From: a virus
Lineage: Duplodnaviria > Heunggongvirae > Uroviricota > Caudoviricetes
IMG/VR virus record: IMGVR_UViG_3300010280_000146
Strand: one strand, 5' to 3'
DNA length: 10,110 nucleotides
Positions 3,109-8,808 of the stretch are shown piece after piece (positions within the stretch are counted from its first letter, which is position 1; every line of letters starts with the position of its first letter). Under the pieces are notes generated by a model. That model had not been told where the DNA came from, did no database searches, and saw nothing but the letters and a program-made list of their open reading frames with translations. Both the position numbers and the translations under genes were made by a program.

Positions 3109-3990
3109 TTACATAGATGTTTCGTTTAATTCTTCCCGACGAACGCTGTAAACGTCGGTGGCTTTTGCCAGCAGTTCGTCATCATCTGAAAGTTTTTGTG
3201 CAATGTATTTGTAAGCCTTATCCAGTTCGGAGACAGTGCTGTAATTCATCGCTGCGCTGGTAAAGGCCATCAGCATTTCTTCTGGATCACGGCTATCCGC
3301 TTTACGCGTTTGCTCATCAGGCTTTTTCACTGGTTTAGCGTTGATCAGACTGTTCATTCCCGCAGCAGTGGTCGTTTGCGGAGTAATGTCTCGCTCAACG
3401 CGCGGTGCCGTTTCCTGTAATTCGTCTGGGGTGTAAACACCGAGAAGTACATCAGGAGCGTGCAGGCGAGCCCATCGTTTCGTGCAAAGATAGGCAAGTT
3501 GCTGGCGCGGATCCTGTTCCCACAATGGAGAGTTACGCACTCCGGCTTGCGCCATACTGATGGTAAGCTCACGGGGTTCTGCTTCTCCTTTAAGAACTGC
3601 TGACACAGTTACCGTCAGATTCGGTGATTTATCTGTTTTGCCGTTAACATTCGACCAGTCACCGCTCCAGCGATAATTCAGGCGTGTCGCTAGCAGGCTG
3701 GAAGAGGATACGACCGCGTTTACCAACTGTGCTTCGTAGCCTAACGTTCCGTTTACCACATGCGTTTTCTGCGCCACGGCGAAAGGGTTCATTCCCCACT
3801 GTGCCGCCTGCATGGTCACCGCCAGGCAATCGGCAGGTTTGCCTTCAAGATGTTTCGGTACAGTCGCTTTGCTTTGTGACATCAACTCCGCGAAACGCAC
3901 CAGTTGATTCATGCCATCGGGGCTGAAGATTGCCGCAGCAGTGCCCACAGTTGCGCCTGGTTGTGATGTGATTGCGATATCATTGCTCAT
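3109..3990 (-). CDS. Bet/RecT-superfamily single-strand annealing protein (lambda Bet-like recombinase)
   Basis: 293 aa; segments MQAAQWGMNPF, NSPLWEQDP...RWARLHAPDVLLGVYTPDE and ERDITP parallel lambda Bet motifs (QYGLNPW, TGPWQSHP...QCARLAFGFAGIYDKDE, ERDITP) as recalled from memory. ATGA overlap with the upstream exonuclease gene. Confidence 0.85.
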   Translation of the reverse strand: MSNDIAITSQPGATVGTAAAIFSPDGMNQLVRFAELMSQSKATVPKHLEGKPADCLAVTMQAAQWGMNPFAVAQKTHVVNGTLGYEAQLVNAVVSSSSLLATRLNYRWSGDWSNVNGKTDKSPNLTVTVSAVLKGEAEPRELTISMAQAGVRNSPLWEQDPRQQLAYLCTKRWARLHAPDVLLGVYTPDELQETAPRVERDITPQTTTAAGMNSLINAKPVKKPDEQTRKADSRDPEEMLMAFTSAAMNYSTVSELDKAYKYIAQKLSDDDELLAKATDVYSVRREELNETSM

Positions 3991-4808
3991 ACGTACATAT
4001 CCTGTTTACGTGCCCAGTCAGGGCGTTTAATAATTTCCACTCCGCCCCATTCATCGTTGATGCGGCATTCGTGGTAGGTATTCAGATCCCGGCGGAACAG
4101 AGCGTGCCCGGCATCGACATCTGGCGCATCCAGCTCGAACACGCGTACCGGATACCGACCACAATCAATGCTTTCGCTCACGGCAAGAAAGAAAAAACCA
4201 TGCGGCTGACCAGTAACCCTCATTGCGCCTTCGCGGTACATTGCGTCCTGCACGTGGTAGCGGAATTCCTCGATGTGGCGTGCAAAACGGTCCATATCCG
4301 CAACCTTTTTCACGTCGACGATCACGTTGTGCTCGTTCAGCCATTTGTCTGGACGAATTCGGCACAACTCACCCGTTTCTTCATCGTTCCAGTACATTGA
4401 TGCTTCGCAGTAACCAGGTGCTTCCAACATCCAGCGTGCCGCCGGATGAGCCATTGCGCTATCACGCATCAGCTCCAGTTTTCGCCACTGCTCGACATCA
4501 AGTACCGCAATACCCATATCCGTCACATCACGAAGAAATGCTTCTTCGTCAGCTTTACCTTGTTTTGTCCGACGATCGAATTTCGGTGAAACGATGAAGC
4601 GTTTGTCGAATTCTCCAGGTTCCAGAAGCAGGCAGTGCAATGCGGTTCCCATATCCAGTGCAGAATTTTTCTCTTCGTCTTCTGGTGCTGCCTGAATCCA
4701 TTTAAGAAGCGCCGGATTCTTGGCAACCATGTCCAGTTGCGACTTACTCACGCCGTCACCGGCGTGGTAGTCTTCGTTGCTGATGTCGAAATAAATTCCC
4801 GGTTTCAT
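3987..4808 (-). CDS. RecE-like PD-(D/E)XK exonuclease (exodeoxyribonuclease VIII-like; partner of the annealing protein)
   Basis: 273 aa; N-terminal GIYFDISNEDYH and the nuclease core RIRPDKW...VIVDVKKV (D...D/E-x-K) plus YHVQDAMY resemble RecE C-terminal-domain-type nucleases; directly upstream of and coupled to the Bet-like gene. Confidence 0.8.
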   Translation of the reverse strand: MKPGIYFDISNEDYHAGDGVSKSQLDMVAKNPALLKWIQAAPEDEEKNSALDMGTALHCLLLEPGEFDKRFIVSPKFDRRTKQGKADEEAFLRDVTDMGIAVLDVEQWRKLELMRDSAMAHPAARWMLEAPGYCEASMYWNDEETGELCRIRPDKWLNEHNVIVDVKKVADMDRFARHIEEFRYHVQDAMYREGAMRVTGQPHGFFFLAVSESIDCGRYPVRVFELDAPDVDAGHALFRRDLNTYHECRINDEWGGVEIIKRPDWARKQDMYV

Positions 4809-5412: not shown

Positions 5413-5997
5413 TTATTGTTTGTTTTTTTCGTTCTGGTTGATGACAAATTCAATGTAACTTTCGATCTTTGCCTTCTCTGTTTCAGGTAACAATGCGTAG
5501 CGCGAGCGGTCATAGTTGATAGTTGCAGGGTCATGCGGATGAATCAGTAGTTCATATCCGTGACGCCCGAATGCAGATGCAACATTCTCCAGGGTGGAAA
5601 TGGAAACGCTGACCTCATTGTTTAACAGGCGGCTTATTGTCACCTGGGCGACGCCGGATGCGCGGTGAAGTTTTCCCTGAGTTGAAAGGTCGCGGCTTTC
5701 ACTCATCCAGCGTTCCAGGTTGTGAGCTGCCAGCTGACCAATGTCGCTTGGGCCGACAGGCTGAAAACCTTCCTGAGAAAGCGAGCGATCGATATCAAGC
5801 CAGTTACGGGGTTTATTGGCGGCAGCTTCAATTTTTCGCGCAACCTGGTCGCCGATAACCTTCTTGCCAAGAGCCCAGCGGTTTACCAGATTTGCCTGAG
5901 TTCCAAGTTTTTCTGCCATCCGCGTCTGAACACCATTGAATTCACGGTCGATCAAGTCGTTGAGATTTTGCCTGCGGACGTCCTGGATACTTTTCAT
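5413..5997 (-). CDS. Tandem helix-turn-helix (two XRE-type HTH domains) transcriptional regulator; candidate prophage repressor
   Basis: 194 aa. First HTH around GVQTRMAEKLGTQANLVNRWALGKKVIGDQVARKIEAA, second around LHRASGVAQVTISRLLNNEVSVSISTLENVASAF. No LexA/S24 peptidase motifs seen. Placed like cI, divergent from a Cro-like gene, with its own terminator. Confidence 0.75.
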   Translation of the reverse strand: MKSIQDVRRQNLNDLIDREFNGVQTRMAEKLGTQANLVNRWALGKKVIGDQVARKIEAAANKPRNWLDIDRSLSQEGFQPVGPSDIGQLAAHNLERWMSESRDLSTQGKLHRASGVAQVTISRLLNNEVSVSISTLENVASAFGRHGYELLIHPHDPATINYDRSRYALLPETEKAKIESYIEFVINQNEKNKQ

Positions 5998-6151: not shown

Positions 6152-6382
6152 ATGAGCGATAACGGACATTTCGATTTCAAAAAGCACTGGCTTGCACTTA
6201 CTCCGGATGAGCGTGAAGCCTTCGCACAGGAAGCCGGAACGACGAGTCACTATATCCAGACTCACTTAACAGGTAAGCGCAAAATGCCAGGTAAGGTATT
6301 GATGAATGGGCTTTTTAAAGCCTGTAAAACAAGACAATGGCTGCGCTCAAAAGCGGAACTGGCATACTTCTTCTACTCATGA
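6152..6382 (+). CDS. Cro/YdaS-like small HTH regulator
   Basis: 76 aa; LTPDEREAFAQEAGTTSHYIQTHLTGKRKMPGKVLMNGLFKACK fits Cro/CI-type and YdaS-like HTH proteins. Divergent from the repressor candidate and followed by a terminator. Confidence 0.7.
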   Translation: MSDNGHFDFKKHWLALTPDEREAFAQEAGTTSHYIQTHLTGKRKMPGKVLMNGLFKACKTRQWLRSKAELAYFFYS

Positions 6383-6452: not shown

Positions 6453-6532
6453 TAAAAAACCAAATCTGGTTGATATTTTTTTTGTGTCAGCACAAAATAA
6501 CCGTAATCCCAATACTAATAACAGGGCTTACC

Positions 6533-6733
6533 ATGGAAATCATTACACGTATTGATGCCGCAAAGCGCGGACTTAAACGCTACTACACCGGAAAACCATG
6601 TAAGCACGGACATGACAGTGAACGCTGGGTTTACAACGGACACTGTGTTGAGTGCACCATGGAATCAAACCGTCGCATCAGGGCAGAGATTAAGCAGATC
6701 ATGATTAATTCCTCCCCACAACATTCAAGCTGA
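6533..6733 (+). CDS. Small Cys/His-containing (putative zinc-binding) protein at the cII-equivalent position
   Basis: Preferred internal ATG 6533 of track ORF 6470..6733. 66 aa, MEIITRIDAAKRGLKRYYTGKPCKHGHDSERWVYNGHCVECT..., with a C-x-H-x-H ... C-x-x-C arrangement. The track's upstream extension is hydrophobic and lies in promoter DNA. Confidence 0.55.
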   Translation: MEIITRIDAAKRGLKRYYTGKPCKHGHDSERWVYNGHCVECTMESNRRIRAEIKQIMINSSPQHSS

Positions 6734-6748
6734 TAGCGGAGATTAATC

Positions 6749-7564
6749 ATGAGCAGACATGCAACAGATTGGGCCTGGGAGACAGATCCAGGTAGCTCGT
6801 CATTAAAGCTCATACTGCTCTCGATGGCTGACAGAGCCGATGAATATAACCTCTGCTACCCCAGCATAGAACGCCTCGTTAAAGACACTTGTCTGAATAA
6901 AAAAACCGTGCAGGCCGGGCTTATATCGCTCATGAAAATGGGGCTTATTTCAGATACCGGAGAGAGAAAGGGAGCGACAAAAAGAGTGCGGGTTTTCTCT
7001 CTTAATATAACCAAAAACGGGAACATTAAAGGCAACCGGGAGGGGGGCAATGAACCCGAAAACGGTAATGTTACCGAAAACGGGAATATACCCAAAAACG
7101 GGATGTTGAATGATCCCAAAAACGGGATGTTGAATGATCCCAAAAACGGGATCCAGAACCAGTCATATAACCGGTCATTTAACCAAGAGAGGGAGAGCAG
7201 GACAAAAAACGGGGATTCTGTGTCTCATGACCCCGGCGCAAACAACGCCGTGATGAATAACTTTGTTCCTCCTGGTGGGCCAGGGCAATTAGGCAAATTT
7301 GTCATGCATGAACAATGGCAGCCATCAGATGACTTTCTTCGGAAAAGCTCATTGCAGGGAATCTACCTGGATAGTCTGCCAACGGCACAGGAACTTGCAG
7401 AGTTCAGAATTTACTGGATGGCTGAGGGTAAGGCATACCATCAGGCACAGTGGGAGCAGAAGCTGGCAAGGCGGCTGCAGATTAGCAGACAGAAGCAATC
7501 AACATTACCTGATAACAACGTTCCGCACTGGAACAGCCCTGAAGCGTGGGAGGATTTCTTGTGA
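6749..7564 (+). CDS. Replication initiator (O-like): N-terminal winged-HTH domain, Asn/Gly-rich repeat linker, C-terminal DnaT-like domain
   Basis: 271 aa. N-terminus MSRHATDWAWE...LKLILLSMADRADE...SIERLVKDTCLNKKTVQAGLISLMKMGLIS (HTH_36-like). C-terminus WQPSDDFLRKSSLQGIYLDSLPTAQELAEFRIYWMAEGKAYHQAQWEQKLARRLQISRQ closely parallels the E. coli DnaT C-terminal region (WQPDADF...[29 protein letters not shown], recalled). RBS GGAG 8 nt upstream. Confidence 0.85.
   Translation: MSRHATDWAWETDPGSSSLKLILLSMADRADEYNLCYPSIERLVKDTCLNKKTVQAGLISLMKMGLISDTGERKGATKRVRVFSLNITKNGNIKGNREGGNEPENGNVTENGNIPKNGMLNDPKNGMLNDPKNGIQNQSYNRSFNQERESRTKNGDSVSHDPGANNAVMNNFVPPGGPGQLGKFVMHEQWQPSDDFLRKSSLQGIYLDSLPTAQELAEFRIYWMAEGKAYHQAQWEQKLARRLQISRQKQSTLPDNNVPHWNSPEAWEDFL
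7011..7150 (+). repeat. Iteron-like direct repeats inside the O-like gene (candidate origin of replication)
   Basis: Six copies of the core C(C)nAAAACGG(G) at 7011, 7055, 7075, 7091, 7115 and 7139, including two exact 24-bp tandem units CCCAAAAACGGGATGTTGAATGAT (7091-7114, 7115-7138); they encode the repeated NGMLNDPK linker. Confidence 0.6.
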
Positions 7565-8346
7565 ACAACGTTTTTACCGCGATACAAAACCGTGACGGAG
7601 AAGCCCTTTCTCGCATGTCAGGTTATGAGCATCAGTACACCAACAATGACAACGTGGTGAACATGTCAGCAGAGAGGCTTGTTGATGCCCTTTTCAAACA
7701 GCTGAAACAACTGTTTCCGGCGGCAGTGGTAACCAACCTGAAGACGCCAGAGCAGGAAGTTGCTGCAAAACAGCAGTGGATTGCTGCGTTTGCCGAAGGG
7801 GGGATCCGAACCCGTGAACAGGTTTCTGCTGGTATGCGCCACGCCCGCGCCAGTGAATCTCCGTTCTGGCCGTCGCCAGGGCAATTCATCAAGTGGTGTA
7901 AAGACAGCAAGATGGTTCTTGGCGTCACCATTGACGATGTGATGGCGGAGTTTCACCGGTACAGCAAGGAAAAAAGTTTATATCCTGGTGGTCCCGAAAG
8001 ATTCCCGTGGCGGCATCCGGTTATGTACTGGGTCGTATGTGATACCCGCCGTGCAATGTATCAGCGCCAGCTTAGCGAGATTGAGGTTGAGAAACACGCG
8101 CGCAGGCTGCTCGATGATTGGGCGAAAAAGGTGGCTTCCGGACAGCAGATACCCGATCCGGTGATCAGCATACAGGCAAAGCCAGAGCCCATGAGTACAC
8201 CTCCGGACACAGGGAGAGACGTTTACCATCCACCAGGGCGAAGTTTCGGGTGCATGCCTAACGCCGCCACTCTGGGGGGAATAACACCGGCGCAGTGGCT
8301 GATGGAGGAATACAGGCGGGGAAAGGCGGCAGGATTTATCAAGTAA
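7561..8346 (+). CDS. Lambda P-like replication protein (DnaB helicase loader)
   Basis: GTG 7561 with GGGAGG 7 nt upstream, overlapping the O-like stop (GTGA). FPAAVVTNLKTPEQEVAAKQQWIAAFAEGGIRTREQVSAGMRHARASESPFWPSPGQFIKWC parallels lambda P (FPASLANRDQNEVNEIRRQWVLAFRENGITTMEQVNAGMRVARRQNRPFLPSPGQFVAWC, recalled). The track start at 7546 is an alternative. Confidence 0.75.
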   Translation: MNNVFTAIQNRDGEALSRMSGYEHQYTNNDNVVNMSAERLVDALFKQLKQLFPAAVVTNLKTPEQEVAAKQQWIAAFAEGGIRTREQVSAGMRHARASESPFWPSPGQFIKWCKDSKMVLGVTIDDVMAEFHRYSKEKSLYPGGPERFPWRHPVMYWVVCDTRRAMYQRQLSEIEVEKHARRLLDDWAKKVASGQQIPDPVISIQAKPEPMSTPPDTGRDVYHPPGRSFGCMPNAATLGGITPAQWLMEEYRRGKAAGFIK

Positions 8347-8463: not shown

Positions 8464-8808
8464 ATGAGAAAACAGATACAGGCTCTTGGTCGACTCAAAA
8501 CAGGCCAGATGAACAAAACAGAATCTGCGTATTGCCAGCACCTTGAGCTGCGTAAACGTGCAGGAGAAATCGTCTGGTATCGATTTGAGGGTATCAAGCT
8601 GCGGTTAGCTGACAACACGTTCTATACGCCCGATTTTGCTGTGATGCTCGCCACCGGCGAGATGGAACTGCACGAAGTGAAAGGTTTCTGGACCGACGAC
8701 GCCAGGGTGAAAACCAAAGTCGCCGCAGATCAGTATCCGTTCCGAATCATCGGGGTAACGGTTAAACCAAAGAAAGCAGGTGGTGGCTGGAACATCGAAG
8801 AGTTCTGA
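8464..8808 (+). CDS. DUF1064-family phage protein (nuclease-like fold, function unknown)
   Basis: 114 aa; NKTESAYCQHLELRKRAGEIVWYRFEGIKLRL...YTPDFAVMLATGEMELHEVKGFWTDDARVKTKVAADQYP fits the DUF1064 pattern as recalled. Confidence 0.65.
   Translation: MRKQIQALGRLKTGQMNKTESAYCQHLELRKRAGEIVWYRFEGIKLRLADNTFYTPDFAVMLATGEMELHEVKGFWTDDARVKTKVAADQYPFRIIGVTVKPKKAGGGWNIEEF

Follow-up and report, generated by a model that had tools for sequence, protein, structure and literature searches.

Two described replication systems stand closest to the genes considered here. In bacteriophage lambda the helicase loader P is taken to contact the initiator O through its N-terminal part and DnaB through its C-terminal part (PMC6022878; PMC12661323), and Oam29, which deletes only the last 5 residues of lambda O, abolishes O activity (PMC6022878). 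In Escherichia coli the C-terminal domain of the primosomal protein DnaT binds single-stranded DNA (ssDNA) between neighbouring helical bundles and forms a cooperative helical filament (PMC4132743; PMC13377028). In the mature preprimosome this filament takes the lagging strand from PriB, on which the acidic linker of DnaT docks (PMC13377028). How DnaT brings DnaB–DnaC to the restart primosome has been called unknown (PMC4132743; PMC13377028), and the recruitment was tentatively assigned to the DnaT N-terminal domain (PMC13377028). Here, we analyze a gene pair that has counterparts in both systems. It is located at positions 6749–8346 of a stretch of 10,110 nucleotides (nt) from the IMG/VR virus record IMGVR_UViG_3300010280_000146 (Caudoviricetes), and this whole stretch is called the window in the following. 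The first open reading frame (ORF1) encodes a replication initiator with a DnaT-like domain near its C-terminus and the second (ORF2) a lambda-P-type helicase loader. Comparison with several hundred related loci suggests that the short tail behind the DnaT-like domain, and not the domain itself, decides which loader is the partner of the initiator.

The pair is a known, common and already named replication module of phiV10-like prophages, and the combination is not new. It shares 98% nucleotide identity with p43/p44 of phiV10, whose records read “identified by similarity: HAMAP MF_01061 (DnaT family)” for p43 and “Pfam PF06992 (Phage lambda P family)” for p44. Other phage records name the pair “primosomal protein I” and “replication protein P”, and RefSeq uses “DnaT-like ssDNA-binding domain-containing protein” and “replication protein P”. 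It is present in 537 of 5,426 complete E. coli genomes in RefSeq, i.e. in about one of ten. In the literature searched there was no paper on how a pair of the ORF1/ORF2 type works and none connecting phage DnaT-like initiators with P loaders.

ORF1 (6749–7564; 271 amino acids, aa) and ORF2 are both encoded on the plus strand, as are all their parts described below. Residues 1–269 of ORF1 match positions 1–276 (of 281) of phrog_1032, “replication initiation protein”, with an E value of 9.4e-108. An AlphaFold2 model, for which 81 diverse homologues were used, contains a confident winged helix (residues 1–90) and a confident helical bundle (residues 181–252; predicted local distance difference test, pLDDT, >92), which are connected by a disordered linker (91–178) and followed by a tail of low confidence (253–271). 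The winged-helix domain (6749–7018), presumably the part that binds the iterons described below, is modelled with pLDDT 87–98 and the topology H-H-H-H-E-E. Its residues 18–67 match the helix-turn-helix (HTH) family HTH_36 of Pfam (PF13730, E 1.8e-10), PHROG families of the type “replication initiation O-like” match residues 1–154, and Foldseek relates the N-terminal domain to winged-HTH regulators and to the N-terminal domains of plasmid initiators (4pql/4pt7). The linker (7019–7282), predicted to be disordered (pLDDT 41–50), is rich in N, G and P (20, 13 and 8, respectively, among 88 residues).

The bundle (7289–7504) is a three-helix ssDNA-binding domain of the DnaT type. The original prediction, made from the letters of the window, had described the C-terminal region of the initiator as DnaT-like and its partner as lambda P-like, and profile searches with both proteins support the two assignments far beyond chance. 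Residues 184–252 of ORF1 match the DnaT DNA-binding domain of Pfam (PF17948) with E 1.2e-15 and 57.4 bits (cutoff 25). A phmmer search against the PDB aligns residues 180–265 without gaps to residues 85–170 of E. coli DnaT (E 7e-21), and the bundle is 52% identical to DnaT 85–153. The modelled bundle superimposes on DnaT84–153 (4ou6) with a template modelling (TM) score of 0.90–0.94 and a root-mean-square deviation (rmsd) of 0.6–0.7 Å, and Foldseek comparison with 4ou6/6aeq gave TM 0.86–0.94 and rmsd 0.6–2.5 Å.

In E. coli DnaT the contacts to ssDNA are made by F124, Y127, W128, K133, F135, K143, R146, S147, I150 and G151 (PMC4132743). Eight of these ten residues are identical in ORF1, including F219, Y222, W223, K228, K238, R241 and I245. 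F135 corresponds to Y230, which is a conservative exchange, and among the other contact positions S147 is changed to R and G151 to S. Over 81 diverse DnaT-like domains the invariant columns are W190, F219, W223 and W235 (ORF1 numbering). The DnaT-like domain of ORF1 is thus probably an ssDNA-binding domain as in DnaT. Nevertheless, neither the N-terminal domain of DnaT nor its acidic PriB-docking linker with Asp66 and Asp70 is present in ORF1: the homology begins at DnaT residue 85, and the N/G/P-rich linker of ORF1 is not acidic. The NCBIfam equivalog model of DnaT (NF002770) is matched only at profile positions 86–169, with 85.3 bits and hence under its cutoff of 201. Therefore, ORF1 is not an orthologue of DnaT but an initiator with the same ssDNA module, either borrowed or shared.

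ORF2 (7561–8346; 261 aa from GTG 7561) is a true homologue of lambda P, and loading of DnaB is its predicted function. It covers positions 2–162 of the 162 positions of Phage_lambda_P (PF06992) with E 1.5e-56 and 191.1 bits (cutoff 26), matches phrog_109, “P-like helicase loader” (2.4e-92), and is 31% identical to lambda P over residues 1–204 (E 2e-36); the match to the solved lambda P chain 8v9t_V has an E value of 1.4e-31. Start and stop codons of the two genes overlap in GTGA (GTG 7561–7563, TGA 7562–7564), and a GGAGG Shine-Dalgarno sequence (7549–7553) lies within the end of ORF1, 7 nt upstream of this GTG, so that the overlap and the coupled expression read from it in the original prediction are borne out. 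The ORF list offered an earlier in-frame start at GTG 7546. It was rejected in favour of GTG 7561 because the alignment with lambda P starts there and because of the Shine-Dalgarno spacing and the phiV10 annotation.

DnaT-like domains are by no means restricted to this arrangement. A scan of 1.8 billion representatives detected 164 proteins with such a domain, which are either of the size of DnaT (~180 aa) or of the size of initiators (240–580 aa) with the domain near the C-terminus; the 93-aa C-terminal fragment of ORF1 alone, used as a protein query, gave 7 matches. Among 81 diverse carriers the N-terminal domains comprise HTH_36 (20), DUF1376 (6), DnaD_N (3), Phage_rep_O (1), RP-C (1) and others. 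The DnaT-like domain is a portable module, joined to N-terminal domains of at least four kinds and not tied to a P-like loader. A full-length P-like gene follows the DnaT-like initiator in phiV10, TL-2011b, Tyrion and Klebsiella phages, and a short P-like gene in Rac-SA53, PPompW and Citrobacter Chris1. A DnaC-like gene follows it in Aeromonas pAEv1818 and in the chromosomal dnaT–dnaC pair, and no loader at all in SPN1S, which belongs to the same phage genus as phiV10.

This distribution bears on the possibility that the DnaT-like bundle itself binds P as the counterpart of the C-terminal domain of lambda O, with the tail being incidental. Such a role would agree with the C-terminal part of lambda O being the genetically defined P-binding region (PMC6022878) and with the bundle being the sole folded C-terminal element of ORF1. 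Furthermore, the unannotated family phrog_15931 (482 positions) is matched by the DnaT-like domain of ORF1 at profile positions 200–268 and by the P core of ORF2 at 354–452, which suggests that single-chain fusions of a DnaT-like domain and P exist in nature, although none was found among the 81 representatives scanned. However, closely similar bundles are found with DnaC-like loaders (DnaT/DnaC, pAEv1818) or without any phage loader (SPN1S), P-like loaders mostly adjoin initiators without a DnaT-like domain, and the conserved residues of the bundle are those that contact ssDNA. Moreover, the C-terminal region of lambda O is not detectably DnaT-like: as a candidate for a hidden domain of this type it was negative in BLASTP, in Pfam at E ≤ 1 and in hhalign (probability 0.1%). 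We therefore regard binding of P by the bundle as unlikely. By the same token the original prediction implies an analogy that is probably mapped wrongly, namely that the DnaT-like domain takes the place of the lambda O C-terminus in recruiting P: the domain occurs also with DnaC-like loaders or none, P-like loaders occur also without the domain, and a short tail containing tryptophan is what ORF1 shares with lambda O.

Some proteins at the margin of these families deserve mention. Short P-like proteins of 125–153 aa (L393:3794-4171; L003:2943-3404; L009:3000-3410) match the P profile only at about 51–161 and are devoid of the N-terminal part; one of them follows an initiator with an IP.GFRG tail, and helicase loading by these proteins is putative. 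The YdaU protein of Rac-SA53 has ~80 extra residues, and the idea that they represent the N-terminus lacking in the short P-like partner found no support in BLASTP. Seven giant proteins (1,600–2,400 aa; P0136, P0141, P0177, P0249, P0257, P0265 and P0269) contain 3–9 weak DnaT-like matches each; at least one of them starts with a signal-peptide-like N-terminus, and the matches may be chance similarities to repeats.

The tail of ORF1 (residues 253–271, i.e. 19 aa; 7505–7561) ends in LPDNNVPHWNSPEAWEDFL directly before the stop codon and is a candidate for the peptide that docks the P-type loader. Over all initiators compared, two kinds of C-terminal end (last ~15 residues) can be distinguished. 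Tails of type A have the form ...EPD..IP.GFRG at the very C-terminus and occur in E. coli DnaT, SPN1S and pAEv1818. Tails of type B are acidic and contain one or two tryptophans, as in the window (HWNSPEAWEDFL at the C-terminus), in TL-2011b (LDWNNTDWIEGVWDEI...), in Rac-SA53 (C-terminal LDCTDWRDD) and in lambda O (LDLTNTDWIYGVDL, including the C-terminal NTDWIYGVDL). Our survey gathered 385 loci through the DnaT-like domain. Most loci found by scanning with the domain were nearly identical to one another, being of the phiV10 type or chromosomal dnaT loci, and the diversity of the comparison as a whole comes from separate queries, ten representative look-ups and two motif-anchored scans. Behind type A tails the next gene was DnaC-like in 82 cases, a non-loader gene in 52 and P-like in none. 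Behind type B tails it was never DnaC-like and was P-like in 241 of 244 cases, the other three having no downstream ORF found.

The motif-anchored scans of IMG/VR (120 loci each) are independent of the DnaT-like domain, and most of their loci do not contain it. When IPPGFRG followed by a stop was used as anchor, a DnaC-like gene came next in 56 loci, 57 had no loader in the locus, and a P-like gene came next in 0 of 114. With LDxxNTDWI as anchor P-like genes came next in 104 of 107 loci and DnaC-like genes in none; the P-like loaders found in these scans mostly adjoin initiators without a DnaT-like domain. Individual systems fill the same scheme. In the K-12 Rac prophage the C-terminal region of YdaU is not of the DnaT type, its tail is ...SAIPPGFRG, and the neighbouring YdaV is DnaC-like. 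YdaU of Rac-SA53 combines a DnaT-like domain with an LDCTDW tail and is followed by a P-like “YdaV” of 153 aa. In lambda O the C-terminal region is not of the DnaT type, the tail contains NTDW and P is encoded by the next gene. Either tail is found behind C-terminal regions of the DnaT type and behind those of another type, and in each combination the kind of loader agrees with the tail. This two-by-two design speaks for the tail, and not the DnaT-like domain, as the determinant of the partner.

Two further observations concern these loci. The two Rac prophages (K-12 Rac, L396:1620-3230; Rac-SA53, L003:1880-3404) have the DUF1376-containing N-terminal half of YdaU in common and differ in the C-terminal halves and the loaders. 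Where an initiator has an IPPGFRG tail but lacks the DnaT-like domain (L397, L401, L418 and ~40 similar loci), the gene for a conserved protein of ~140 aa often follows. This protein is winged-helix-like at its N-terminus and carries a CxxC...QRVLAFYQG motif at its C-terminus, and there is no loader gene in these loci.

On the side of the loader it is the variable N-terminal ~100 residues (7561–7869 in the window) that co-vary with the initiator tail; they are the counterpart of the portion of lambda P to which O binding is attributed. P of the window and gp13 of TL-2011b are 43% identical over the first ~100 aa and 100% identical over 105 residues after a PSPG motif, and at the nucleotide level the identity to TL-2011b begins at window position 7816 (query position 1068). 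Compared with lambda P, the first ~100 residues are 51% identical in TL-2011b, where the partner tail is lambda-like, and 35% in the window, so that the N-termini of P group according to the type of tail. A natural chimera (L079, IMGVR_UViG_7000000370_000053) combines a DnaT-like domain of the window type with a tail and P N-terminus of the TL-2011b type, and the C-terminal half of its P is again of the window type. Chimera and TL-2011b comparison taken together, the unit of exchange therefore consists of the tail together with ~90 N-terminal residues of P.

The exchanged block is contiguous, both in the chimera and in the comparison of the window with TL-2011b, and the association could be considered as genetic linkage only, that is, as a contiguous recombination block without physical contact between tail and loader. 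Since the tail codons adjoin the loader gene, linkage alone would yield much of the association, and this is one of several points that weigh against a specifying role of the tail and the initiation mechanism built on it. The loci form 29 clusters at 70% identity and fewer at 60%, hence represent few independent lineages. Predictions for the ten look-ups (6 of type B, 4 of type A) were recorded beforehand. In favour of such a role, a P-like neighbour was found for four of the six type B tails. The two others are exceptions, of which one (P0205) is followed by a 153-aa protein without assignment and one (P0189, tail ...DTSWGD) by Dam, with no loader. The type A look-ups gave one DnaC-like fragment, one locus without a loader and one counter-example (P0155), in which a short P-like gene (125 aa) lies 300 nt downstream of an A-type tail. 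The tail of the window (HWNSPEAW) is only loosely similar to that of lambda O (NTDWIYG). Finally, no clear AT-rich unwinding element flanks the iterons treated below, as the 50-nt windows reach at most 60% A+T.

Few lineages and the two exceptions P0189 and P0155 thus speak for mere linkage. Against it, tryptophan tails (HWNSPEAW, LDWNNTDW, LDCTDW, NNTDDW, NDTSW) persist across very divergent initiators in which the surrounding sequence is unalignable, and the loss of the last five residues is fatal for lambda O. Additionally, IPPGFRG tails are maintained in the chromosomal DnaT proteins of many genera as well as in initiators without an adjoining loader gene. They are hence conserved where no phage loader is linked to them, which counts against linkage as the only cause. 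We consider this explanation improbable.

A general rule in the form of a two-letter “tail code”, valid for bacterial and phage initiators irrespective of their remaining sequence, would go further. According to it ...EPD..IPPGFRG recruits DnaC-type loaders of the host or of a phage, and an acidic tryptophan peptide (NTDW, HWNSPEAW, LDCTDW) the N-terminus of P-type loaders. We put this forward tentatively, as a possible generalization for which the odds are still somewhat unfavourable. If true, the conserved C-terminal tail of E. coli DnaT would be the element that brings DnaB–DnaC to the restart primosome. The association of tail and loader thereby bears on two unsettled contacts, namely that of lambda-type O with P and that of DnaT with DnaB–DnaC. 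The gene pair as such is ordinary for E. coli prophages and its value is that of a natural experiment: one ssDNA module is found in host DnaT and in many phage initiators, together with varied origin-binding domains and loaders, which allows the part of an initiator that holds DNA to be separated from the part that chooses the loader.

The DNA coding for the linker of ORF1 contains an iteron array (7003–7213) with seven copies of AAAACGG(G), starting at 7014, 7059, 7077, 7095, 7119, 7143 and 7206. A perfect 24-nt tandem repeat (7091–7152) is located within it. The longer motif CMAAAACGG is observed four times with 0.26 expected, a count reached in 0 of 200 shuffles. In close relatives (loci L010–L090) the number of AAAACGG copies ranges from 4 to 9, and the length of the protein (250–295 aa) varies with it. 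Thereby the number of iterons changes the length of the linker in steps of 4–8 residues; the database homologues have 271–311 aa. By analogy with ori-lambda, which lies inside gene O, the array is presumed to be the replication origin.

Taken together, the locus probably represents a lambda-style initiation system that is built from different parts, a reading to which we assign a probability of about 0.55. The N-terminal winged helix of ORF1 would bind the seven iterons in its own linker-coding DNA and several initiators would in this way gather at the origin. The DnaT-like bundles could then line up on ssDNA and hold the melted strand open, as the DnaT C-terminal filament does, and the acidic, tryptophan-containing tail of 19 residues would dock the P-like protein by its N-terminal part. 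The loader is expected to bring host DnaB, to open its ring and to place it on the exposed strand. Synthesis of ORF2 by translational coupling, via the GTGA overlap and the internal Shine-Dalgarno sequence, would keep the partners in proportion.

An alternative use of the ssDNA module is also conceivable, in which the DnaT-like domain docks on PriA and links the phage origin to the restart primosome of the host, either supplementing or replacing P-dependent loading. The DnaT C-terminal domain binds a hydrophobic surface of PriA and nucleates its filament there (PMC13377028), the 52% identity of ORF1 is to this very domain, and relatives of the SPN1S type manage without any phage-encoded loader. 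However, ORF1 has neither the N-terminal domain of DnaT nor the acidic PriB-binding linker (Asp66/Asp70), and it possesses its own domain for binding double-stranded DNA, iterons and a translationally coupled gene for a dedicated loader. Docking on PriA thus seems rather doubtful to us as compared with the lambda-style scheme.

With its 10.1 kb the window corresponds to the early region of an E. coli prophage that is phiV10-like (Uetakevirus). From base 107 onward it is 96–98% identical to phiV10, phiv142-3, PAS61 and others. Since the similarity of the phiV10 type begins only there, positions 1–106 are probably host flank at the attachment site beside the integrase gene (314–1564), which is the first gene in the window. 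An adenine methylase gene comes next, followed by the genes for RecT (3109–3990, minus strand; 293 aa) and a YqaJ-type exonuclease (3987–4808, minus strand; 273 aa). These two are separate overlapping ORFs in the window, whereas the phiV10 record has one 1,761-nt “RecE-RecT fusion” at this place. A double-HTH repressor (5413–5997, minus strand), a cro-like gene (6152–6382) and a small ORF (6515–6733) precede the initiator gene directly, and a DUF1064 gene (8464–8808) is found after ORF2. At the junction of the small ORF and ORF1 there is an 11-base-pair perfect inverted repeat, TCATGATTAAT / ATTAATCATGA (6699–6752), which together with a CCUC/GGAG pairing is predicted to form an RNA hairpin of -17.2 kcal/mol (z -3.25). 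It covers the Shine-Dalgarno sequence (GGAG, 6738–6741) and the AUG (6749) of ORF1, and the 5' arm is located within the terminal part of the small ORF. The hairpin would be opened when the small ORF is translated, a hint that synthesis of the initiator is translationally coupled or controlled.

Among the described systems phiV10 is nearest. Its p43/p44 genes have the same 4-nt start/stop overlap and its gene order is that of the window (integrase, methylase, RecT/exonuclease, repressor, cro-like gene, small ORF, initiator, P, DUF1064); the initiators differ in length (275 aa in phiV10, 271 aa in the window) through the number of iteron/linker repeats. Rac-SA53 is also similar in that its YdaU has a DnaT-like domain and the tryptophan tail LDCTDWRDD, with a P-like gene downstream, but it has a DUF1376 N-terminal domain, ~80 extra residues before the tail and a P-like protein that is short (153 aa, profile positions 51–161). 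The lambda O/P genes show the same architecture as the pair studied here, with iterons in the linker region of the initiator gene, a 4-nt overlap and then the loader gene, and both initiators end in a short tail containing tryptophan. Nevertheless, there is no detectable similarity between lambda O and ORF1 in either domain, and BLASTP is not significant. Lambda O contains Phage_rep_O (PF04492, 5.7e-36), which is not matched by ORF1 with its HTH_36 domain, and the C-terminal region of lambda O and the DnaT-type bundle of ORF1 are different parts. E. coli DnaT, on the other hand, shares with ORF1 the C-terminal three-helix ssDNA domain, with 52% identity, the same fold and the same DNA-contact residues, and in dnaT–dnaC, too, a helicase-loader gene is located immediately downstream, encoding DnaC instead of a P-type protein. 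At its N-terminus DnaT carries an oligomerisation domain where ORF1 has a winged-helix domain for double-stranded DNA, and at the C-terminus the two proteins part again, with the tail HWNSPEAWEDFL in ORF1 and EPDSQIPPGFRG in E. coli DnaT.

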